A program made the position numbers and the translations under genes. Under the pieces are notes generated by a model. It worked only from the letters and a program-made list of their open reading frames with translations. It was not told the origin of the DNA and searched no databases. 64,000 nucleotides of DNA, from assembly GCF_054482525.1 (NCBI RefSeq), contig NZ_CM137006.1; one strand, given 5' to 3'. Positions 38,404 through 48,513 of the stretch are shown one piece after another (position 1 is the stretch's first letter; every line of letters begins with the position of its first letter).

Positions 38404-41400
38404 TTACGCCTCCTCTTCATGACGGGCAAAGCGGCTTTTGGTCCACAATGCCAGGCGGTCGAATAGCAGATAAATCACCGGCGTGGTGAACAGCGTCAGC
38501 ACCTGGCTGACAATCAGACCGCCGACCATGCCGATACCTAACGGACGACGCAGTTCCGCGCCGACCCCGGTACTCAACATCAGCGGCAGCGCGCCAAGCA
38601 GAGCCGCCAGGGTGGTCATCAGGATCGGACGAAAACGCAACAGACAAGCCTGGTAGATTGCATCGCGCGGCGACATGCCTTGCTCGCGCTCAGCAGCCAG
38701 CGCGAAGTCGATCATCATGATGGCGTTCTTCTTCACGATACCGATCAGCAAAATAATGCCGATAATTGCAATCACATCCAGTTCGCTACCGGCAATCATT
38801 AACGCCAGCAGTGCGCCAACACCTGCCGTGGGTAGCGTCGAGAGAATGGTGATCGGGTGAATAAAGCTCTCGTACAGAATGCCGAGCACGATATACATCG
38901 CCACCACCGCCGCGACAATCAGCCAGACAGTGCTGCCCAGCGCCGACTGGAAAGCGAGGGTGCTGCCCTGGAACTGCGTGGTGATATCCACCGGCAGATT
39001 CAGCGTCTTTTCGGTGTCCATAATCGCCTGCACCGCATCGCCCAGCGAATAGTTATCCGGCACGTTAAAGGAGATAGTCGTTACCGGAAACTGATCCAGA
39101 TGGTTGATGGAGAGCGGCGCAAAACGCTGCTCAATTTTGGCAATTGAGCTTAGCGGCACCACGCCGCCGTCGCTGCTGGTCAGGCGAATGGTATCCAGCG
39201 CCGCGAGGCCTGGGGTATTTTCGGTGTTGTGTTCCAGCACCACGCGATACTGGTTAGCCTGAGTATAAATAGTGGAAATCAGCCGCTGACCAAACGCGTT
39301 GTACAGGGCGTTATCGACATCCGCCATGCTGATCCCCAGACGGCTGGCGCTGTCGCGATCAACATTGACATACGCCACCAGCCCTTGGTCCTGCCAGTCG
39401 CTGGAGACATCAGAAAGCTGTGGCAACTGCTGGAGTTTTTCCATCAACTGTGGCACCCAGGTACTGAGCGCATCCAGTGACGTGGCCTGCAAGGTAAACT
39501 GGTACTGGGTGCGGCTGACCTGAGTATCGATGGTCAGGTCCTGCGTTGGTTGCAGGAAGAGATCGACGCCCGGCACTTTATCCACCGCCGTTTGCAGACG
39601 GGCGATGACTTTTTGCACCCGGTCATCTCGTTCATCCAGTGGTTTGAGATTGATCTGTAAACGCGCACTGTTCAGCGACGGGTTAGTGCCATCAACGCCA
39701 ACAAATGAGGTCAAACTTTGCACTGCCGGATCCTGCAAAATCACGTCCGCGACCTGGCGTTGCCGCTGGGCCATATTGGCAAAGGAGCTGGATTGCGGTG
39801 CCTGCAAAGTGCCCTGAATAATGCCGTTGTCCTGCACCGGGAAGAAACCTTTCGGAATGAACACCCACAGCAGCACGCTAAGCAGCAGCGTGCTGAGTGC
39901 CACGCTTAAGGTCAGCCACGGATGATTCAGCACTTTCGCCAGTCCACGACCATAGGCGGCGATTATCCTGTCGAACATTTTCTCCGAGGCTCGGGAGAAG
40001 CGATTCTGTTTACGCAGCGACTCCTGGCTGAGCATCCGCGCGCACATCATCGGCGTCAGAGTCAGCGACACCACGGCTGAGATCAAAATCGCGACTGCCA
40101 GAGTAATAGCAAATTCGCGGAACAGTCGCCCGACGATATCGCCCATAAATAGCAGTGGGATCAACACTGCAATCAGTGAGAAGGTCAGCGAGATAATGGT
40201 AAAGCCGATTTCACCCGCGCCTTTGAGCGCCGCCGCCAACGGTTTTTCGCCTTTTTCGATATAGCGGGAAATGTTTTCGATCACCACGATGGCGTCATCG
40301 ACCACAAATCCGGTGGCGATAGTTAACGCCATCAGCGTCAGGTTATTGATTGAAAAATCGAGAAACACCATGACCGCGAAGGTGCCGATTAACGACAGCG
40401 GCACTGCGACGCCGGGAATGATGGTCGCCGGAATATTACGCAAAAACAGGTAGATAATCATGACTACCAGCGCGATAGCCATCATCAATTCAAACTGAGT
40501 ATCATCGACCGATGCGCGGATGTTGGTGGTGCGGTCAGAAAGCACCGTCACTTTTACCGATTTCGGCAAACTCTCGGTGAGTTGTGGCAGCATCTGCCGG
40601 ATGCTGTCGGCGGTGGAGATAATGTTAGCACCGGGCTGGCGCTGAACATTCATCACAATGGCCTGTTCTTTGTTCGCCCACGCGCCGAGCCAGCTGTTTT
40701 CTGCTCCTTGCTCTACGGTTGCGACATCGCCCAGACGAATCGGCGCGCCGTTCTGGTAGGCGATGATCAGCTGGCGATACTCTTCGGCGGATTGCATCTG
40801 GTCGTTCGCGGAAAGTGTGACCGCACGGGAAGGGCCGTCGAGGCTACCTTTTGCCGAGTTAACGTTAGCGCCGGTAATAGCGGTGCGCGCGGTTTCGCTG
40901 GTCAGGCCGAGGGCGGCAATCGCCTGGGCGTTAAGTTTGACGCGAACAGCCGGACGCTGGCCGCCGGAAAGCGTCACCAGGCCGACGCCGGAAATCTGCG
41001 AGATTTTTTGCGCGACGCGGGTTTCCACCATATCTTCCACCTGGGTCATCGGCATGGCGGTTGAGGTGACGGCGAGCGTCATGATCGGCGGATCTGCCGG
41101 GTTCACTTTGCTATAAACCGGCGGGTTAGGTAGATCGCTCGGCAACAAGTTGGTCGCAGCGTTAATCGCGGCCTGCACTTCCTGCTCGGCGACATCGAGC
41201 GGTAATGTTAGCTGGAACTGCAAAGTGATAACTGACGCACCGCCGGAACTTTGCGACGACATCTGTTTCAGGCCAGACATCTGCCCGAACTGGCGTTCGA
41301 GCGGCGCGGTAACGGCAGAGGTCATGACATCCGGGCTGGCACCTGGGTAGAGGGTGACCACCTGAATGGTTGGATAGTCCACTTCCGGCAGCGCCGAAAC

Positions 41401-41526
41401 GGGCAGGGCGCGATAACCGATAATCCCGGCGAGTAAGATCGCCACCATCAGCAGCGTGGTGGCGACAGGACGCATAATAAACAGGCGCGACGGGCCGCCT
41501 GTGCTGCTCGGGGGTAACACCTGCAT
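38404..41526 (-). CDS. mdtB: RND multidrug efflux pump subunit MdtB (1040 aa)
   Basis: 1040-aa RND transporter. Confidence 0.96.
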
Positions 41527-42773
41527 CAGGAGCGTGCTCCTTTTTTCGCGTATTCGCGGCTGGTGGCTTTCTCTTCCGAAGTGGTGGCGCTCTGGGCTTC
41601 CACCACTTCCACTTTCGCCCCTTCGGTCAGGCGATCAATGCCATCCGTCACTACGCGGTCGCCCGCAGAAATACCTGCGCGGATCACCACTTTCTGACTG
41701 TCCTGAATGCCCGGCGTCACCAGATGTTTGCTGACCTTGTTTTCGCTATTCAGCACCCAGACAAAATGGCCTTCGTTGCCCATTTGCAGAGCGGCGGTGG
41801 GGATCACCACGGCGTTTTGTTCGGTGTCGACTAACATACGCGCGTTAACAAACTGATTGGGAAACAGCGCATCATCCTGATTATTAAAGCGTGCTTTCAC
41901 TTTAATCGTACCGGTAGTGGCATCGATTTGGTTATCGAGACTTAACAGCGTGCCTTCACTTAATTTCTTCGAGTTGGTGCGATCCCAGGCTTCAACAACC
42001 AGCGGTTTTCCGGCTTTTTGCGCCTGTACTACGGTAGCGATATCGCTTTCCGGCAGGGTAAAGAGCAAATCGATAGGATGCGTCTGGGTGATCACCACAA
42101 TCCCGGTGGTATCACCACTGGAGATTTGGTTACCAACATCAACCTGCTTGAGGCCAACGCGACCATCGACTGGTGCGGTAATACGGCTCCAGTCGAGCTG
42201 CAGCTGCGCGCTGGCGACGCTTGCTTCATCAGCCTTAATGGTGCCTTCGGTTTCACTGACCAGCGCTTGTTGGGCATCCAGCTCCTGGCGGGAGACAAGA
42301 TTGGTTTTTGCCAGTTGTTGATAACGCGCCAGGTCACGGCGGGCGTTGGCAAGCGTGGCTTTATCTTTTGCCAGTTGGCCCTGGGCTTGTGCTAATGCAA
42401 CTTTGAACTGGCTTGGGTCAATTTCTGCCAGTAAATCGCCTGCTTTGACCTGCTGGCCTTCCTGGAAATGTAACGCCATCAGTTGACCGTCCACGCGGCT
42501 GCGCACCGTAACGGTATTAGCGGCGGTAATGGTGCCAAGCCCGGTGAGATAACGTGGCACAGCTTGTTCTACGGCAGTCGCCGCCTGAACCGGGGCTAAT
42601 GGGCCGGCACGCATACCACGGCGACCACCCGCTGGCGATTGCTGCGCTTGTTTCGTCGCCCCTGGGGCTGCACTCCGGGAGTCATTGCGGCCTTGCCAGA
42701 ACCAGAATGCGGCGATGGCGGCGATAACCACCACGATTACGATTACCCAACGGGATTTATAACTGCCTTTCAT
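41526..42773 (-). CDS. mdtA: Efflux membrane fusion protein MdtA (415 aa)
   Basis: Start at [16 protein letters not shown] (ATG 42773, revcomp); HlyD-type periplasmic adaptor. Confidence 0.94.
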
Positions 42774-42826
42774 CGTTAAGAGTTTCTCTTCCTGAAACGT
42801 TTCGCGGAATGATACTAGTGTAGCCA

Positions 42827-42844
42827 GCCAATAAGGGAGAAAAA
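42827..42844 (-). promoter_or_regulatory. Putative BaeR-binding box upstream of mdtA
   Basis: Reverse complement reads TTTTTCTCCCTTATTGGC, close to the BaeR box consensus as I recall it (TTTTTCTCCATDATTGGC); ~55 bp upstream of the mdtA start. Confidence 0.5.
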
Positions 42845-42999
42845 TGGAGGAATTATGAAACACTATCGGGAATCGTCTGAATGGCGGGCACATTTGCGAG
42901 CACGCATCCAGTAATAACACATGAAACTATTTTATCTACGCGTTAGCGATAGACTACGTGCATGGCGAAAGGAGGTAAGCCGATGATTTCAGCGGGACG

Positions 43000-43150
43000 C
43001 TGAAACGGGAAAGCCCCTCCCGAGGAAGGGGCCATAAATAAGGAAAGGGTCATGATGAAGCTACTCATCATCGTGGTGCTCTTAGTCATTAGCTACCCAG
43101 CATACTAAGACTACCAGGGCGGGGGAAACCCCGCTCTACCCTCACTCCTG
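43000..43150 (-). ncRNA. sibB: SibB antisense sRNA (type I antitoxin), approximate boundaries
   Basis: By established ibs/sib organisation the antisense RNA fully overlaps ibs; reverse-strand hairpin plus U-rich tract near 43009-43031 is consistent with its terminator. Confidence 0.5.
43052..43108 (+). CDS. ibsB: Type I toxin IbsB (18-aa hydrophobic peptide)
   Basis: ATGATGAAG... encodes MMKLLIIVVLLVISYPAY; preceded by AAGGAGG-containing leader. Confidence 0.85.
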   Translation: MMKLLIIVVLLVISYPAY

Positions 43151-43329
43151 AAAGTATGCCTTCACGATAAGATTGTCAATCTGCAGGCTTTGCAGTCTGC
43201 GATCCTGCCAGCAAATATTCTTTGCGAGACGTTACGCAATAATCACACTGGAAACTATTTTATCCGCAAGTCAGCGATAGACTGCATACAGGGCGAAAGG
43301 AGGTAAGCCGACGATTTCAGCGGGACGCT

Positions 43330-43480
43330 GAAACGGGAAACCCTCTCCCGGAGAAGAGGGCTTTTAATAAGGAAAGGGTTATGATGAAGCACGTCATCAT
43401 ACTGGTGATACTCTTAGTGATTAGCTTCCAGGCTTACTAAGAACACCAGGGGGAGGGGGAAACCTCTCCCTAACCCTCAC
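43330..43480 (-). ncRNA. sibA: SibA antisense sRNA (type I antitoxin), approximate boundaries
   Basis: Antisense to ibsA by analogy; hairpin at ~43338-43360. Confidence 0.5.
43381..43440 (+). CDS. ibsA: Type I toxin IbsA (19-aa hydrophobic peptide)
   Basis: Encodes MMKHVIILVILLVISFQAY. Confidence 0.85.
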   Translation: MMKHVIILVILLVISFQAY

Positions 43481-43660
43481 TCCTGAAATTATGTCACTCC
43501 GCCCTTAGTGTCAATCGACGGCTCTCCGTTCTTGCGAGGCGAATAGCAAAATTTTCTGCGCCGCCGGGCCTAATTCTGAAAGTTTCTTCGTTTGCTCTTA
43601 TTTCATTGTTGCAGTCGGTATGATACCGGACCTCGATAATTCTCTAAGAAAGGATTTCTT

Positions 43661-44320
43661 ATGAGCGAACAAATCACGTTTGCCACCAGCGATTTTGCCA
43701 GTAACCCGGAACCACGTTGCCCCTGCATTTTGCTGCTGGATGTTTCTGGCTCGATGAGCGGCAGACCTATTAATGAACTTAATGCCGGATTGGTTACCTT
43801 TCGCGATGAGCTGCTTGCCGACCCGCTGGCCTTAAAAAGAGTGGAACTCGGTATTGTGACGTTCGGCCCGGTGCATGTGGAACAACCATTTACCAGCGCC
43901 GCTAATTTTTTCCCGCCCATCCTGTTTGCCCAGGGCGATACACCAATGGGCGCCGCCATTACCAAAGCCCTGGATATGGTTGAGGAGCGCAAACGTGAGT
44001 ATCGCGCCAATGGTATTTCCTATTATCGTCCGTGGATTTTCCTGATCACTGATGGCGCACCAACCGATGAGTGGCAGGCTGCCGCCAACAAAGTGTTTCA
44101 GGGGGAAGAAGATAAGAAGTTTGCCTTCTTTTCCATCGGTGTTCAGGGGGCGGATATGAAGACTTTGGCACAAATCAGCGTTCGTCAGCCTTTGCCACTG
44201 CAGGGATTACAATTCCGTGAACTGTTTAGCTGGTTATCCAGTTCGCTGCGTTCGGTTTCCCGCTCCACGCCGGGAACTGAAGTTGTGCTGGAAGCGCCAA
44301 AAGGCTGGACGTCAGTGTGA
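43661..44320 (+). CDS. yegL: von Willebrand factor A domain protein YegL (219 aa)
   Basis: vWA MIDAS-like motif [11 protein letters not shown]; 219 aa. Confidence 0.93.
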
Positions 44321-45078
44321 GCTGGCGTCTGGTCTATGCATCAACCGTTGGAACGTCGCACATCAGCGCGGACTTGCCTTGCCAGGATGCCTGCCAGATG
44401 CAGGTTGCCTGGTTAAATGACCAGCAGCCATTATTGTCGGTATTTGTCGCTGATGGCGCAGGCAGTGTCTCGCAGGGTGGCGAAGGCGCGATGCTCGCCG
44501 TCAATGAAGCGATGGCTTATATGTCGCAAAAAGTGCAGGGCGGGGAATTGGGGCTTAATGATGTCCTCGCCACGGATATTGTGCTGACCATTCGTCAGCG
44601 ACTTTTTGCCGAGGCAGAGGCCAAAGAATTAGCGGTTCGCGATTTTGCCTGCACATTTCTGGGACTGATTTCATCGCCTGACGGCACCTTGATTATGCAG
44701 ATTGGCGATGGCGGCGTGGTGGTAGATTTGGGTCACGGTCTGCAATTGCCTCTCACGCCGATGGTGGGTGAATATGCCAATATGACGCACTTCATTACCG
44801 ACGAAGATGCCGTTTCCAGACTGGAAACTTACACCAGTACTGAGCGTGCGCATAAAGTTGCAGCATTTACGGATGGTATTCAGAGGCTGGCGTTAAATAT
44901 GTTGAATAATTCTCCGCATGTGCCTTTTTTTACCCCGTTTTTCAATGGACTGGCGTCAGCAACGCAGGAACAACTCGATTTATTACCTGAATTGTTAAAG
45001 CAGTTTTTGTCCGGCCCGGCGGTAAACGAGCGTACCGATGATGATAAAACGTTGGCACTGGCGCTGTGGTTACCATGA
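44317..45078 (+). CDS. pphC: PP2C-like protein phosphatase YegK/PphC (253 aa)
   Basis: 253-aa ORF overlapping the yegL stop; conserved partner of the yegI kinase. Confidence 0.9.
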
Positions 45079-47015
45079 AACCCACTTTATATACTGCTAC
45101 TGGTGAGTGCGTTACGCCAGGCTGTGAACTGGGCAAAGGTGGCGAAGGCGCGGTTTATGATATCGAGGAGTTTGTCGATAGCGTCGCCAAGATTTATCAC
45201 ACGCCGCCACCCGCCTTAAAACAGGACAAACTTGCCTTTATGGCTGCGACAGCTGATGCGCAGTTGCTGAATTATGTCGCCTGGCCGCAGGCAACGCTTC
45301 ACGGTGGACGAGGCGGAAAAGTTATCGGTTTTATGATGCCAAAAGTTTCTGGTAAAGAACCGATTCATATGATCTATAGCCCGGCACATCGTCGCCAGAG
45401 TTACCCTCATTGTGCGTGGGATTTTCTACTCTATGTTGCGCGCAATATTGCGTCATCTTTTGCTACGGTTCACGAGCACGGGCATGTCGTGGGTGACGTA
45501 AACCAGAACAGCTTTATGGTAGGCCGTGACAGCAAAGTGGTATTGATTGATAGCGACTCCTTTCAGATTAACGCCAATGGAACGCTGCATTTATGCGAAG
45601 TCGGCGTGTCGCATTTTACGCCGCCAGAGCTGCAAACATTGCCATCATTTGTCGGCTTTGAACGCACCGCGAATCACGATAATTTTGGCCTTGCGTTGCT
45701 GATTTTTCACGTCTTGTTTGGTGGTCGGCATCCTTATTCCGGTGTACCGCTTATCTCTGATGCGGGTAATGCGCTGGAGACGGATATTGCCCATTTCCGT
45801 TATGCCTACGCGTCAGATAATCAGCGACGTGGTTTAAAACCGCCGCCACGATCGATACCGCTGTCGATGTTACCGGGCGATGTTGAAGCCATGTTTCAGC
45901 AGGCATTCACGGAAAGTGGCGTGGCAACCGGGCGTCCGACGGCAAAAGCGTGGGTATCAGCACTGGATTCTCTACGCCAACAGTTAAAGAAATGTACCGT
46001 TTCGGCAATGCATGTTTATCCTGCTCATTTGACCGACTGCCCGTGGTGTACGCTGGATAATCAAGGCGTTATCTATTTTATTGATCTCGGCGAAGAGGTC
46101 ATTACCACCAGTGGTGATTTTGTGCTGGCGAAAGTCTGGGCGATGGTGATGGCGTCAGTAGCACCGCCAGCATTGCAATTGCCATTACCCGATCATTTCC
46201 AACCGACTGGCCGGCCGCTTCCTTTAGGCCTGTTACGGCGCGAATACATCATTCTGATTGAGATCGCACTGTCAGCTTTATCGCTGTTGCTTTGCGGTCT
46301 TCAGGCAGAACCGCGTTATATTATTTTGGTTCCTGTGCTGGCGGCTATCTGGATTATTGGCAGTCTGACAAGCAAAGCTTATAAAGCAGAAATCCAGCAA
46401 CGCCGTGAGGCATTTAATCGCGCGAAAATGGACTATGACCATTTAGTCAGCCAGATCCAGCAGGTGGGCGGGCTGGAAGGTTTTATCGCCAAACGGACGA
46501 TGCTCGAAAAAATGAAGGACGAAATGCTCGGGTTACCGGAAGAAGAAAAACGTGCTCTGGCAGCACTTCACGACACCGCAAGGGAACGGCAGAAGCAGAA
46601 GTTTCTGGAGGGATTTTTTATTGATGTTGCCTCTATTCCCGGCGTTGGCCCTGCGCGTAAAGCGGCGTTACGGTCCTTTGGTATTGAAACAGCAGCGGAT
46701 GTTACCCGTCGTGGGGTTAAGCAAGTGAAAGGGTTTGGTGATCATCTGACCCAGGCGGTTATCGACTGGAAAGCGAGTTGCGAACGCCGTTTTGTGTTCA
46801 GGCCGAACGAAGCGGTAACGCCTGCAGACAGACAAGCGGTAATGGCAAAAATGACCGCCAAACGACATCGGCTGGAATCGGCGTTGACTGTCGGCGCGAC
46901 AGAGTTGCAGCGATTCCGCCTTCATGCTCCAGCACGGACCATGCCGTTGATGGAACCGTTACGTCAGGCGGCAGAAAAACTGGCTCAGGCGCAGGCTGAT
47001 TTAAGCCGTTGCTGA
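45066..47015 (+). CDS. yegI: Ser/Thr protein kinase-like protein YegI (649 aa) with C-terminal membrane/coiled-coil region
   Basis: Kinase-like N-terminal domain (HGHVVGDVNQNSFMV catalytic-loop-like, DSDSF), TM segments, C-terminal region. Confidence 0.92.
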   Translation: MVTMKPTLYTATGECVTPGCELGKGGEGAVYDIEEFVDSVAKIYHTPPPALKQDKLAFMAATADAQLLNYVAWPQATLHGGRGGKVIGFMMPKVSGKEPIHMIYSPAHRRQSYPHCAWDFLLYVARNIASSFATVHEHGHVVGDVNQNSFMVGRDSKVVLIDSDSFQINANGTLHLCEVGVSHFTPPELQTLPSFVGFERTANHDNFGLALLIFHVLFGGRHPYSGVPLISDAGNALETDIAHFRYAYASDNQRRGLKPPPRSIPLSMLPGDVEAMFQQAFTESGVATGRPTAKAWVSALDSLRQQLKKCTVSAMHVYPAHLTDCPWCTLDNQGVIYFIDLGEEVITTSGDFVLAKVWAMVMASVAPPALQLPLPDHFQPTGRPLPLGLLRREYIILIEIALSALSLLLCGLQAEPRYIILVPVLAAIWIIGSLTSKAYKAEIQQRREAFNRAKMDYDHLVSQIQQVGGLEGFIAKRTMLEKMKDEMLGLPEEEKRALAALHDTARERQKQKFLEGFFIDVASIPGVGPARKAALRSFGIETAADVTRRGVKQVKGFGDHLTQAVIDWKASCERRFVFRPNEAVTPADRQAVMAKMTAKRHRLESALTVGATELQRFRLHAPARTMPLMEPLRQAAEKLAQAQADLSRC

Positions 47016-47027
47016 GCCAGTTTTCAA

Positions 47028-48380
47028 TTAACGAAACACCACTTCCGCCCAGCGTGCCAGCCCGGCGGTGACGGAGCCAAAGTCATCGCCACCTGCAATC
47101 GGAATGCCCGGCAACTGTTCTGTCAGCGCTTTTTTAATCAGCGGTGAACGGGCGCTACCGCCAGTTAGGTAGATAACGTCCGGTTTTTCCTGGGCGTTAT
47201 CCAGCGCCAGTTGCACCTGTTCCAGAATCCGCGCCAGTGGCTGGTTGAGGGCGCTTTCCAGCCCTTGCTGGCTAATCAGCGTAGCCAGTTCATCGCTGAT
47301 AAACGGTAGTGAGGCGCGGGTTTCCGCTACGCTTGAAAGGGCGATTTTGCTCTCTTCTGCACTGCGCACCAGGCGATAGCTTAAACGCTGACGCCAGACT
47401 TTCTGTAACAGGGCCACTTTTTCCGGTTCGCGGGCATCGCGTACCAGATCGTTAAGCAGACGACCGTTGGCACTACTGTAGAAATCACTTTGCGCAGGTA
47501 CGTCGTTGATGGCAACCGCATTCCACCACGGCAGAATCGGCAGGGCGATGCCTTTTTCGGTTTCGCCACCCATGCCAAGTAACGGCATCAGGTTTTTAAA
47601 CGCCAGCGCGATATCCAGATCGTTACCACCAATACGGCAACCACTGTGACCCAGCAGGCTGGCTTCACGATCGAGACGCGAACGCCACTGCGGCCCCATC
47701 AGCAGCAATGAACAGTCAGTCGTACCACCGCCGATATCCACCACCAGCACCCGTTTTTCTTCCTGCAAGGTGGCTTCGTAATCCAGCCCAGCCGCGACCG
47801 GCTCGTACTGGAATACCACATCCTTAAACCCGGCACGCTTTGCCGCGCGTTCCAGAATCCCTTGCGCCTGGGTGTTTGCTTCATCGCCGCCCAGCCCCTG
47901 GAAGTTGATCGGGCGACCAATCACCGCCTGAGTAATCGCATCCGGCAGCTGCGCCTGCGCCTGCTGGCGAATGTGCAACATCATTGCGCAGACCAGATCC
48001 TCAAACAGCGCTACCTGCTGCGGTTTTAAGCCGCTGGCACCGAGGAATGATTTTGGTGATTTCACAAACCACACCTCTTCTGGATCATCAATGTACTGTG
48101 CCAGTGAGGAAAGACCGAACTGCACGCTTTTCGCCGTAACATCGATATCTTCTTCGCGGTTATAACGAATCGCCCGACGCAACAGCGCCTGCGTTTCATC
48201 GTCGTCTGCCGGAACATCATGATGGCGGTACAGCCATTCGCTTACCGCTTCACGCGTTGGCGCGCAAAGCATTGAAGGCAGCAGCGTGCTGTCGTTTTCC
48301 ATTTTCAGTAATTGCGGCTTACCGTCGCGCATGACCGCCACTGAACAGTTTGCTGTACCGTAATCAAAACCAATAAACAC
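47028..48380 (-). CDS. yegD: Hsp70-family (actin-like ATPase) protein YegD (450 aa)
   Basis: Start taken at GTG giving MFIGFDYGTANCSVAV; DnaK-like phosphate-binding motifs (VVDIGGGTTD). Confidence 0.9.
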   Translation of the reverse strand: MFIGFDYGTANCSVAVMRDGKPQLLKMENDSTLLPSMLCAPTREAVSEWLYRHHDVPADDDETQALLRRAIRYNREEDIDVTAKSVQFGLSSLAQYIDDPEEVWFVKSPKSFLGASGLKPQQVALFEDLVCAMMLHIRQQAQAQLPDAITQAVIGRPINFQGLGGDEANTQAQGILERAAKRAGFKDVVFQYEPVAAGLDYEATLQEEKRVLVVDIGGGTTDCSLLLMGPQWRSRLDREASLLGHSGCRIGGNDLDIALAFKNLMPLLGMGGETEKGIALPILPWWNAVAINDVPAQSDFYSSANGRLLNDLVRDAREPEKVALLQKVWRQRLSYRLVRSAEESKIALSSVAETRASLPFISDELATLISQQGLESALNQPLARILEQVQLALDNAQEKPDVIYLTGGSARSPLIKKALTEQLPGIPIAGGDDFGSVTAGLARWAEVVFR

Positions 48381-48513
48381 GAAATAATCCCCATGCCGGT
48401 GAAGAAGGGGCGTGACTTTAGCGAAATGTTGCCGTCGCGACAACCGGAATATGAAAGCAAAGCGTAGCGTCTGAATAACGTTTATGCTGAAAGCGGATTA
48501 ACAAGGAGATGCG

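Follow-up and report, generated by a model that had tools for sequence, protein, structure and literature searches.

YegL, PphC and YegI of Escherichia coli as a probable phospho-switch of the TerY-P type

The vWA, phosphatase and kinase genes at positions 43661 to 47015 of the 64,000-nucleotide stretch analysed here (the window; NCBI RefSeq assembly GCF_054482525.1, contig NZ_CM137006.1) are the previously described E. coli operon yegL-pphC-yegI, to which nothing is added as annotation. Taken together, the evidence is best explained by a phospho-switch of the TerY-P type whose genes are tightly packed and probably coupled in translation, a reading to which we give a probability of about 0.75. 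Our additions to the published picture are the relationship of YegL to TerY, a zinc ribbon and an (HhH)2 module predicted in YegI, and the occurrence of the triad as a cassette across phyla.

Identity of the locus and its gene junctions

The window matches E. coli PCN033 at 100% identity, and RefSeq names the genes there yegL, pphC and yegI, so that the identities given in the preliminary description (yegL-yegK-yegI) were correct. Its rating of the triad as of modest novelty was also right. All three genes already bear names, and for two of them the protein has been characterised biochemically. The genes do not differ in kind from those studied by Rajagopalan, Nagle & Dworkin (J Bacteriol 2018; FEBS Lett 2020), and PCN033 likewise has K39, D141 and DSD of YegI, D46 of PphC and a two-pass topology. 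The triad proteins are ~97% identical to other E. coli alleles. The Pfam matches of YegL and PphC (Table 1), the near-universal presence in E. coli and the low dN/dS (see below) argue against ORFs that arose by chance.

Table 1. Genes of the triad and modules of YegI, with positions in the window
Feature	Position	Strand	Description	Basis or key residues
yegL	43661..44320	+	TerY-family vWA protein, 219 aa	ORF, RefSeq name, Pfam VWA 6e-10
pphC (yegK)	44317..45078	+	PP2C-type Ser/Thr phosphatase, 253 aa	GTG start; Pfam PP2C_2 6e-53
yegI	45075..47015	+	atypical Hanks-type Ser/Thr kinase, 646 aa from ATG 45075	RefSeq, homologue alignment
YegI, aa 1-300	45075..45974	+	kinase domain	G20xGGEG25xV27, K39, D141/N143, D159-S-D161-S162, TPPE185, D202
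YegI, aa ~303-330	45981..46064	+	zinc-ribbon-like module (predicted)	C307, H313, C322-P-W-C325
YegI, aa ~389-435	46239..46379	+	transmembrane hairpin	Kyte-Doolittle peaks 389-411, 413-435; helices in model
YegI, aa ~436-512	46380..46610	+	long cytoplasmic helix / coiled-coil stalk	model helices 418-465, 467-485, 487-500, 502-512
YegI, aa ~515-575 and beyond	46617..47009	+	C-terminal (HhH)2 module (predicted), then long helical region	hairpins IPGVGPARK, VKGFGDHL

All three plus-strand ORFs were recovered as first described, the third as 45066-47015 (649 aa) when read from an in-frame alternative GTG that adds three residues. At the yegL/pphC junction (...TCA GTG TGA) the yegL stop and the GTG start of pphC share GTGA, which gives the 4-nt overlap already noted. 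For pphC and yegI an overlap of 13 nt had been proposed; this holds only with the longest-ORF GTG at 45066, whereas the ATG at 45075 in the junction sequence GTG GTT ACC ATG A leads to a 4-nt ATGA overlap. RefSeq places the start of yegI at this ATG, its position is the N-terminus in 13/13 aligned YegI homologues, and published work describes the same 4-nt ATGA overlap with pphC for yegI of B strains and O157 (Rajagopalan & Dworkin; bioRxiv 10.1101/303594, 10.1101/819920), whose contiguous arrangement the PCN033 triad shares. As RefSeq, literature and homologue N-termini all favour the ATG, 4 nt (ATGA) and not 13 nt is the most likely length of this overlap.

The tight translational coupling read from these junctions is plausible, and would be ancient, since the 4-nt overlap of vWA and PP2C genes recurs in ~50 of ~72 homologous loci. 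In 36% of complete E. coli genomes, K-12 included, yegJ lies between pphC and yegI and the coupling is therefore broken there; PCN033 carries the uninterrupted, yegJ-less form. IS elements were found at the locus in some E. coli genomes and a truncated yegI in one Escherichia representative. A simple scan for sigma-70-like promoters upstream of yegL gave nothing above shuffle expectation. According to the two preprints, expression of the triad is undetectable under standard conditions and weak in stationary phase (bioRxiv 10.1101/303594, 10.1101/819920), and yegI mutations have been reported as recurrent in long-term evolution lines.

YegL is a TerY-family protein

By its sequence, YegL belongs to the TerY family of vWA proteins, and its metal-binding MIDAS site is intact. 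The MIDAS residues D27, S29, S31, T94 and D131 are conserved to at least 95% in 71 homologues, and the same holds for a Ser-rich C-terminal motif, W191 L192 S193 x S195 ... S200 x S202 x P204 G205. BLASTP of YegL against a TerY protein of an IncHI2 ter locus led to 32% identity over 181 aa (E 4e-27), and tblastn matched the TerY genes of 2294 plasmids, with 29-36% identity to the TerY proteins of ter plasmids. Both the MIDAS site and the C-terminal W-x-S-x-S motif are common to YegL and TerY. In a PADLOC scan YegL touched the TerY model PDLC02224 alone, below threshold (E 0.013, 13 bits). Kyte-Doolittle analysis revealed no hydrophobic segment in YegL, which is predicted to be cytoplasmic. Within Escherichia the dN/dS of yegL is 0.016-0.067, and among homologous loci the vWA protein is the most conserved member of the triad, with 54-85% identity compared to 31-62% for the kinase. 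In the portions available, bioRxiv 10.1101/303594 and 10.1101/819920 describe YegL as a predicted von Willebrand factor type A protein and nothing more.

PphC and the modules of YegI

PphC shows the fold and conserved metal-binding aspartates of PP2C (PPM) phosphatases: the Pfam PP2C_2 match spans residues 11-220, and the acidic metal ligands D24, D46, D131, D186 and D241-243 are at least 95% conserved among homologues. The same preprints report that PphC is Mn-dependent, inactive as D46N and able to dephosphorylate YegI (bioRxiv 10.1101/303594, 10.1101/819920). For YegI they describe an active kinase with two transmembrane passes and DSD in place of DFG, for which K39D and D141N are dead, which prefers Mn2+ and autophosphorylates activation-loop serines from which PphC removes the phosphates; PhoA-LacZ topology analysis placed both termini in the cytoplasm, with a two-helix hairpin as inner-membrane anchor (bioRxiv 10.1101/819920, 10.1101/303594). 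The kinase and phosphatase motifs on which the preliminary description had made its annotation depend are thus present and conserved, and both activities are published.

The signature residues of the kinase domain (Table 1) are invariant in 68 sequences. The catalytic loop reads VGD141VNQNS and is followed by D159-S-D161, so that canonical HRDxKxxN and DFG are absent; activity is reported regardless. Pfam Pkinase did not reach E 0.01 with YegI. An AlphaFold model of the kinase domain (mean pLDDT 89) was matched by Foldseek to PknB, PknA, Aurora and Src kinases with probability 1.00, the top matches being PknB and PknA with target-normalised TM of 0.62-0.74. The bilobal fold, Gly-rich loop, beta3 Lys and catalytic and metal-binding Asp that mark Hanks-type kinases were all found. 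Conserved catalytic residues and the match of the model to PknB, despite the missing Pfam kinase domain, confirm YegI as a divergent Hanks kinase.

The membrane/coiled-coil tail attributed to YegI is indeed present in both its parts, but this description was incomplete, as two further modules are predicted: a zinc ribbon with conserved C-H-C-C residues and, at the C-terminus, an (HhH)2 module. C307, H313, C322 and C325 do not vary among 68 homologues, and in the model this segment forms two short strands and then a helix; no Pfam zinc-ribbon model matched YegI. From these residues and the modelled fold we infer that the ribbon binds zinc. The (HhH)2 assignment is a prediction from sub-threshold sequence and fold matches. 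Pfam HHH_5 gave E 9e-4 and 20.1 bits, below the cut-off of 27, and a profile of the module found in the PDB only HhH segments, namely those of L32e, REV1, Pol IV and RAD51D (E 0.02-0.9). A fold search with the C-terminal model (pLDDT 95) led to HhH domains of Rad51-NTD, Hjm, DisA and Hef as best matches, none of them significant (E at least 0.24). The distal helical region covers 583-645 in the full-length model and forms one helix in the C-terminal model. A family of 2319 representatives shares the module at E <= 1e-10, and in the best 150 of these it is C-terminal in proteins of ~640-660 aa, or in shorter ones that are likely fragments. Neither the HhH module nor the zinc ribbon is mentioned in the available text of bioRxiv 10.1101/303594 and 10.1101/819920. 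No solved structure related to YegL, PphC or YegI came up in sequence searches of the PDB.

Distribution and neighbourhoods

The locus is present in 5420/5426 complete E. coli genomes, and in 5387/5426 a match covers at least 80% of the 4.5-kb query. Its position in Escherichia is fixed, next to mdtABCD. Within Escherichia dN/dS is 0.02-0.17, like that of the flanking genes, indicating purifying selection; on this ground pseudogenisation of the triad was rejected. The earlier statement that the triad is conserved core chromosome therefore stands for Escherichia, but beyond this genus it fails: among ~100,000 species representatives, the only matches in Enterobacteriaceae were Escherichia species and Klebsiella spallanzanii, so a family-wide synteny comparison, as had been suggested, would mostly find absence. 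The remaining matches are scattered over distant phyla and plasmids.

In ~72/76 informative loci the vWA, PP2C and kinase genes are adjacent and in the same order; these loci belong to Proteobacteria, Planctomycetota, cyanobacteria, archaea (Methanoregula) and plasmids, with plasmid-borne copies in Pseudomonas, Rhizobium/Agrobacterium, Cupriavidus and Deinococcus. When 920 flanking ORFs were clustered all against all, no conserved fourth gene spanned lineages. Among the loci examined, YegD (Hsp70-like) adjoins the triad in Escherichia only and was rejected as a member of the system; similarly, a GYF-T2SSE ATPase adjoins it in Planctomycetota only. Judged from these sequences, the triad looks like a horizontally spread, self-contained TerY-P-type cassette with no fixed fourth gene. 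A search of phage genomes led to one weak kinase match and nothing else.

When the two nearest ORFs on each side were inspected at ~60 non-Escherichia loci, their Pfam content was heterogeneous, mostly ordinary metabolic, transport or regulatory genes, and enrichment in defence islands is therefore not demonstrated. Some homologous copies lie among genes for an SLFN-like helicase, McrA-N, BrxR and JetB, among AbiH, a KAP NTPase and a Tn7-like element, and among GmrSD, SymE and type I RM. At a minority of loci, PADLOC analysis of the flanks detected Gabija, JetA, methyltransferases and RecQ-like helicases. DUF4236 genes accompany some triads and also the ter locus, and terZABCDE was found beside the triad neither in the window nor in the loci examined. 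In E. coli the locus holds a near-universal fixed position, which is not typical of a defence cassette.

Comparison with known systems

The TerY-P triad was defined by Anantharaman, Iyer & Aravind 2012; we follow the summaries in eLife RP94800 and PLoS One e0159419. In common with it, the E. coli genes encode together a TerY-family vWA protein with MIDAS, an adjacent PP2C and an adjacent Ser/Thr kinase, and they are inherited jointly across distant lineages; TerY-P triads are likewise mobile, often beside DNA-processing or restriction genes, and the kinases of CoCoNuT-linked TerY-P carry a zinc ribbon after the catalytic domain, as is predicted for YegI. YegI differs in a membrane hairpin, a coiled coil and a putative (HhH)2 beyond the zinc ribbon, and the E. 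coli triad stands alone, without McrBC/CoCoNuT, WXG100/FtsK or ter genes.

A TerY-P system of the same three-component architecture was reported by Gao et al. 2020, according to papers citing it, as a stand-alone defence that protects against T7-like phages. Its kinase is fused to a C-terminal OB fold, whereas YegI has 2TM + a predicted HhH module instead; in the YegI model a zinc ribbon, TM hairpin, coiled coil and (HhH)2 were seen and no OB fold. The PADLOC TerY-P model was not matched by YegL, PphC or YegI. PphC matched no PADLOC model, and YegI matched only the kinase cores of PD-T4-6 and MkoA (E at least 1.8e-4). Membership in a PADLOC defence family, with the marginal TerY match as the only hint, was thus rejected.

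With PknB-PstP of M. tuberculosis and PrkC-PrpC of B. subtilis the triad shares the kinase fold and a cognate PP2C that is encoded alongside and dephosphorylates the kinase. Unlike these kinases, YegI has no extracellular PASTA or other sensor domain, keeps both termini in the cytoplasm and reads VGDVNQNS for HRDxKxxN and DSD for DFG. An obligatory vWA partner gene and accessory domains of a nucleic-acid type (predicted) also set the triad apart.

Proposed function and alternative explanations

In the phospho-switch that we favour, YegL would act as sensor, adaptor or phospho-substrate, with its invariant Ser-rich C-terminal tail as a candidate target, and PphC would reset the switch. The HhH and zinc-ribbon modules may tether YegI to nucleic acid at the membrane, and the output would concern DNA or foreign-DNA stress and not routine metabolism. 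The cassette would have become fixed in Escherichia beside mdtABCD, kept by purifying selection and barely expressed in the laboratory. In a genome-wide overproduction screen both YegL and YegI came out as DNA-damage-up proteins; MdtA and MdtB scored too, so the screen may partly reflect overproduction of membrane proteins. An anti-phage or DNA-stress role of the triad is plausible.

If defence against phages or other foreign DNA were the function, the membrane-tethered HhH kinase of a TerY-P system fixed in E. coli would sense incoming DNA and bring about growth arrest or other protection through YegL. TerY-P-like triads reported as stand-alone systems against T7-like phages are in line with this, as are the homologues beside AbiH, KAP NTPase, GmrSD, type I RM, BrxR, Wadjet and Gabija genes, the plasmid copies, the patchy taxonomic distribution and the predicted nucleic-acid-type domains of the kinase. 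We nevertheless regard dedicated defence as possible but rather unlikely, since PADLOC models remained unmatched, the reported defence kinases have an OB fold and not 2TM + HhH, most neighbours at ~60 loci are non-defence genes, one fixed site is occupied in nearly all E. coli genomes, phage genomes gave a single weak match, and no phage phenotype is reported for the yegJ-interrupted K-12. Kinase and phosphatase might also be a housekeeping pair for physiology, for example of stationary phase or the envelope, and yegL would then be a mere upstream neighbour; the experimental papers frame the pair in this way (bioRxiv 10.1101/303594, 10.1101/819920). The weak stationary-phase expression reported there, the core status in E. 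coli and the purifying selection fit this, but the reading is improbable given a vWA gene linked to the pair in ~72/76 loci across phyla, as its most conserved member and with its stop overlapping the PP2C start in most loci, besides plasmid carriage and an occurrence among Enterobacteriaceae representatives limited to Escherichia and one Klebsiella species.

We hold just as little of a metal or tellurite-type stress sensor, in which the MIDAS site of YegL would sense a metal ion and the kinase/phosphatase pair convert the signal into phosphorylation. It would be in keeping with the homology of YegL to TerY of tellurite-resistance loci, the invariant MIDAS and the DUF4236 genes shared by some triads and the ter locus, and it was the original TerY-P hypothesis (Anantharaman et al. 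2012, as given in a citing paper); no terZABCDE adjoins the triad in the window or the loci examined, however. MIDAS sites, moreover, commonly mediate protein-ligand contacts and not the sensing of free metal. That the triad is what is left of a horizontally acquired element, now silent, decaying and functionless, is very improbable. Such decay could explain the undetectable expression in standard conditions and the recurrent yegI mutations of long-term evolution lines, as well as the yegJ insertion in 36% of genomes, the IS elements and the one truncated yegI. Against it stand the coverage of at least 80% of the query in 5387/5426 genomes, the dN/dS of 0.02-0.17, the retention of all catalytic, MIDAS and zinc-ligand residues and the published activity of the purified proteins.

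The TerY-P-type switch could be extended, with considerable reserve, to a domesticated sentinel in which YegI at the inner membrane would detect DNA via its zinc ribbon and (HhH)2 and phosphorylate the YegL tail, while PphC resets the system. The DNA might be that of an entering phage or conjugative element, or a damaged or mis-segregated chromosome, and the phosphorylated Ser-rich tail would trigger a protective or suicidal response. If true, a kinase system that is still an orphan in the best-studied bacterium would gain a function, and a 2TM-HhH subclass of TerY-P systems would be defined. YegI is among eight known E. coli Ser/Thr/Tyr protein kinases in one paper's list, and its only known substrate is YegI itself. 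The search for its role is narrowed by the obligatory TerY-like vWA partner, the conserved zinc-ribbon and HhH modules (predicted) and the cassette-like spread to plasmids and some defence islands, and that two of the three proteins score as DNA-damage inducers on overproduction is a further pointer; jointly these features point to DNA or foreign-DNA stress over metabolism. Because yegJ splits the operon in K-12, strains with an uninterrupted operon are better suited than K-12 for experiments.

Gene boundaries and start codons

The segment matches the E. coli PCN033 chromosome with 100% identity, and ORF listing recovered the three co-directional reading frames described before, which RefSeq names yegL, pphC (yegK) and yegI. 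At the yegL/pphC junction (TCA-GTG-TGA) the sequence GTGA is common to the yegL stop and the pphC start, confirming the 4-nt overlap of the preliminary description. An overlap also exists at the pphC/yegI junction (GTG-GTT-ACC-ATG-A), but its supposed size of 13 nt holds only if yegI is read from its earliest in-frame start codon. RefSeq starts yegI at ATG 45075; for B and O157 strains an ORF of 1941 bp and 646 aa is reported that overlaps by the four nucleotides ATGA (Rajagopalan, Nagle and Dworkin, bioRxiv 10.1101/303594 and 10.1101/819920); and 13 of 13 aligned YegI homologues begin at the matching residue. On these grounds we favour ATG 45075, by which yegI encodes 646 aa and the overlap shrinks to 4 nt (ATGA). 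The same type of start-codon artefact was seen for mdtA (464 aa as longest ORF, 415 aa in RefSeq) and yegD (471 and 450 aa). yegI and yegD are convergent, with 12 nt separating their stop codons (47015-47028), and have been given as a transcriptional 'excludon' (PMC12288877); no terminator-like hairpin was found in this gap.

Positions of the features discussed (window positions unless preceded by an L-number, which denotes a DNA stretch of another genome or plasmid)
Feature	Position	Strand	Remark
yegL	43661-44320	+	vWA domain protein (RefSeq), 219 aa
pphC	44317-45078	+	protein-serine/threonine phosphatase (RefSeq), 253 aa, GTG start
yegI	45066-47015	+	protein kinase (RefSeq); as longest ORF 649 aa, GTG start
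mdtA	41526-42920		longest ORF
yegD	47028-48443	-	longest ORF
Sib RNAs	43037-43179, 43366-43514	-	Rfam SIB_RNA, 141.7 and 149.5 bits
Ibs small ORFs	43052-43108, 43381-43440	+	RefSeq Ibs-family toxin, IbsA
yegJ-bearing segment	L002:5080-5804		725 nt
pphC of E. coli E69	L034:2980-3741
TerY protein, IncHI2 plasmid	L089:11021-12058
DUF4236 gene, IncHI2 plasmid	L089:6838-8046		beside terW
DUF4236, Burkholderiales	L026:7297-8424, L028:3331-4470, L065 flank		adjoining triad
Thiotrichales kinases	L062:5875-7620, L063:9992-11782

Kinase, phosphatase and accessory modules

Pfam assigned YegL to VWA (6e-10) and PphC to PP2C_2 (6e-53). For YegI no Pfam kinase model was found at E ≤ 0.01, the only match being a sub-threshold HHH_5 at residues 518-553, and since the annotation stands or falls with the kinase motifs, these were checked more closely. 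Across 68 aligned homologues, the most distant of them 27% identical, the Gly-rich loop G20-x-G-G-E-G25-x-V27, K39, D141, N143, D202, I158-D159-x-D161-S162 and T182-P-P-E185 were invariant or nearly so. The AlphaFold2 model built on this alignment (mean pLDDT 89) found its best PDB matches in the kinase domains of M. tuberculosis PknB and PknA and in eukaryotic kinases (probability 1.00, target-normalised TM 0.62-0.74). According to Rajagopalan et al., YegI prefers Mn2+ and autophosphorylates on serines of its activation loop, the kinetics being second-order, and K39D or D141N abolishes activity; VGDxxQxS replaces HRDxxxxN and DSD replaces DFG, conversion of DSD to DFG yielding an inactive protein. 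PphC, Mn2+-dependent and inactive as D46N, removes the phosphate from YegI. Its acidic residues D24, D46, D131, D186 and D241-243 were at least 95% conserved among 70 aligned homologues. With conserved motifs and published biochemistry for both enzymes and a PknB/PknA-like fold of YegI, the annotation stands.

Two hydrophobic stretches of YegI (389-411 and 413-435) agree with the published two-pass topology with both termini in the cytoplasm (Rajagopalan et al.). Between kinase and membrane hairpin, an invariant C307...H313...C322-P-W-C325 lies in a modelled strand-strand-helix element, which we read as a putative, presumably metal-binding, zinc ribbon. The hairpin is followed by a helical stalk of ~75 residues and then by a module containing a pair of Gly-hydrophobic-Gly hairpins, IPGVGPARK and VKGFGDHL; a long helix closes the protein. 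Residues 505-646, modelled separately, reached pLDDT 95. Profile comparison of this C-terminal part with the PDB returned only HhH segments, from archaeal L32e, REV1, DNA polymerase IV and RAD51D (E 0.02-0.9), and the best folds were HhH domains of Rad51/Dmc1/RadA, Hjm, DisA, Hef, RuvA and NAD-ligase, none significant (E at least 0.24). These sub-threshold matches in sequence and fold make an (HhH)2 module likely without proving it. In a scoring of 1.84 billion representative proteins, 2319 relatives of the module reached E ≤ 1e-10, and in the best 150 of these it was located at the C-terminal end of proteins of ~640-660 aa or shorter, the shorter ones probably being fragments. Both the HhH and the zinc module are absent from the account in the experimental preprint. 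In YegL no hydrophobic segment was found; its complete MIDAS (D27-x-S29-x-S31, T94, D131) and the Ser-rich C-terminal motif W191-L-S193-x-S195...S200-x-S202-x-P-G were at least 95% conserved in 71 homologues.

Kinship with the TerY-P triad

When YegL was searched against plasmids by tblastn, 2332 records matched, 2294 of them below 60% identity, and those sampled from the latter were TerY vWA genes of tellurite-resistance (ter) loci carried by Klebsiella, Escherichia, Enterobacter and Salmonella plasmids. The best match in an IncHI2 plasmid lay inside a terW-terY-terX-terY-terY block, and pairwise BLASTP with this TerY gave 32% identity over 181 residues (E 4e-27). MIDAS residues and, in the tail, W-x-S-x-S stand at aligned positions in the two proteins. 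The composition of the trio is that of the TerY-phosphorylation (TerY-P) triad, in which a TerY-family vWA protein, a PP2C phosphatase and a Ser/Thr kinase are encoded together. In the literature this triad appears as a proposed metal-sensing phospho-switch tied to DNA-processing systems, one variant being reported as a stand-alone anti-phage system (eLife RP94800; PLoS One e0159419). The trio falls outside the TerY defence family as now modelled in PADLOC, as the TerY model matched YegL only with E 0.013 and PphC was without any match.

The 'TerY-C metal binding' tail of one IncHI2 TerY protein contains CPWC, like C322-P-W-C325 of YegI (~46038-46049), a hint of a possible relationship between the two Cys-rich modules. 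DUF4236 proteins adjoin the triad in three Burkholderiales loci and one is encoded beside terW in the IncHI2 tellurite-resistance locus, a second thread tying the triad to ter-associated genes.

The trio as a cassette

When ~100,000 species, each represented by a single genome, were scanned for two invariant kinase peptides, 88 relatives came up, and 80 loci were retained. Enterobacteriaceae were represented only by Escherichia species and Klebsiella spallanzanii, K. aerogenes being added by protein search. Other loci came from Burkholderiales, Pseudomonas, Chromatium, Thiotrichales, Methylococcaceae, Desulfobacterota, Planctomycetota, Spirulina, Lentisphaerae and the archaeal Methanoregula. 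Of the 76 loci whose upstream sequence was long enough, ~72 had YegL and PphC homologues directly upstream of the kinase, in the same order; the 4-nt vWA/PP2C overlap recurred in ~50, and the PP2C/kinase junction typically measured -14 to +20 nt. YegL was the most conserved (54-85% identity; kinase 31-62%, phosphatase 32-66%). The Hsp70-like E. coli neighbour YegD was adjacent only in Escherichia, and clustering of 920 flanking ORFs gave no fourth gene common across lineages. The kinase was also found on bona fide plasmids of Pseudomonas (megaplasmids including pQBR103), Agrobacterium/Rhizobium/Sinorhizobium, Cupriavidus and Deinococcus, with the whole triad in both plasmids whose annotation was inspected. 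In its fixed gene order, its patchy occurrence in distant taxa, its plasmid copies and its lack of a fixed fourth gene, the trio behaves as a self-contained, horizontally transferred cassette. Its description as conserved core chromosome applies only inside Escherichia.

Two Thiotrichales genomes are rare exceptions, with a glycogen phosphorylase gene instead of vWA and PP2C genes upstream of the YegI-like kinase. An opposite-strand gene for a GYF_2-domain T2SSE-type ATPase follows the triad in ten Planctomycetota loci (L067, L068, L072-L074, L076, L078, L080, L083, L085), and a hydrophobic stretch terminates nine kinase sequences that we assume to be those from Planctomycetota.

State of the locus in E. 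coli

A 4.5-kb query of triad and flanks matched 5420 of 5426 complete E. coli genomes, and in 5387 a place was found that spans 80% or more of the query. dN/dS, computed against four further Escherichia genomes, was low (yegL 0.016-0.067, pphC 0.11-0.165, yegI 0.06-0.10), and the triad genes are thus maintained by selection; flanking genes gave 0.03-0.09 (mdtA), 0.04-0.08 (yegD) and 0.07-0.40 (alkA; full-length alignments 0.07-0.14). In 1934 of the 5426 genomes, including K-12, a segment bearing yegJ on the opposite strand parts pphC from yegI and takes the place of the first yegI codons, and some genomes carry IS1 or IS4 at this spot; PCN033 and the window (45066-45078) have the uninterrupted form. 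Published work found no condition of robust expression, and a simple scan upstream of yegL gave no sigma-70-like promoter.

By far the most divergent triad gene within E. coli is pphC (83% amino-acid identity and dS 0.82 to strain E69, where yegL is 98% identical), which suggests an allele imported by recombination. The interval between mdtA and yegL holds two Sib/Ibs type I toxin-antitoxin modules in tandem.

Possible function

The locus is already known and named, and the preliminary description was essentially right about its identity; the present analysis corrects one overlap, maps the domains of YegI more completely, classes the trio as TerY-P, subject to the caveats on membership, and finds it to be a mobile cassette rather than a stretch of conserved enterobacterial synteny. 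To the joint statement of locus identity, cassette and phospho-switch we assign a probability of roughly 75%. The genes are inherited as a cassette that includes an obligatory TerY-like MIDAS partner, and the membrane-anchored kinase bears conserved zinc-ribbon-like and HhH-like modules in the cytoplasm. YegL could serve as sensor, adaptor or phospho-acceptor, its Ser-rich tail being the candidate site. At the membrane, the accessory modules would recruit the kinase to nucleic acid; PphC would reset the switch, and the output may relate to DNA or foreign-DNA stress.

That the triad is specifically an anti-phage system appears rather less likely than not. Defence-type genes abounded in three of the five non-Escherichia contexts read in detail, namely Piscinibacter (SLFN-like helicase, MazG, McrA-N/NOV_C, SNase, BrxR, JetB), Chromobacterium (AbiH, KAP NTPase, Tn7-like transposition module) and Klebsiella spallanzanii (GmrSD, SymE, type I restriction-modification). 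A Rhizobium rhizogenes plasmid carried UvrD-helicase and DUF262 genes, maybe of defence type, plus HxsABC, and a Pseudomonas fulva megaplasmid umuDC-like and conjugation-type genes, none annotated as defence. For ~60 loci the two ORFs closest to the triad on either side were also scanned: their Pfam content was heterogeneous and largely ordinary, and only a minority of loci had clear defence genes by PADLOC (Gabija, JetA, methyltransferases); as these counts stand without a background control, we claim no enrichment. A slightly smaller chance is given to a domesticated DNA-sensing TerY-P sentinel.

A genome-wide overproduction screen placed YegL and YegI among the proteins raising endogenous DNA damage (Xia et al., bioRxiv 10.1101/354589), which fits a DNA connection, but the signal may be unspecific, as MdtA and MdtB scored likewise. 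All four proteins are encoded by two adjacent operons (38404-42773 and 43661-47015).
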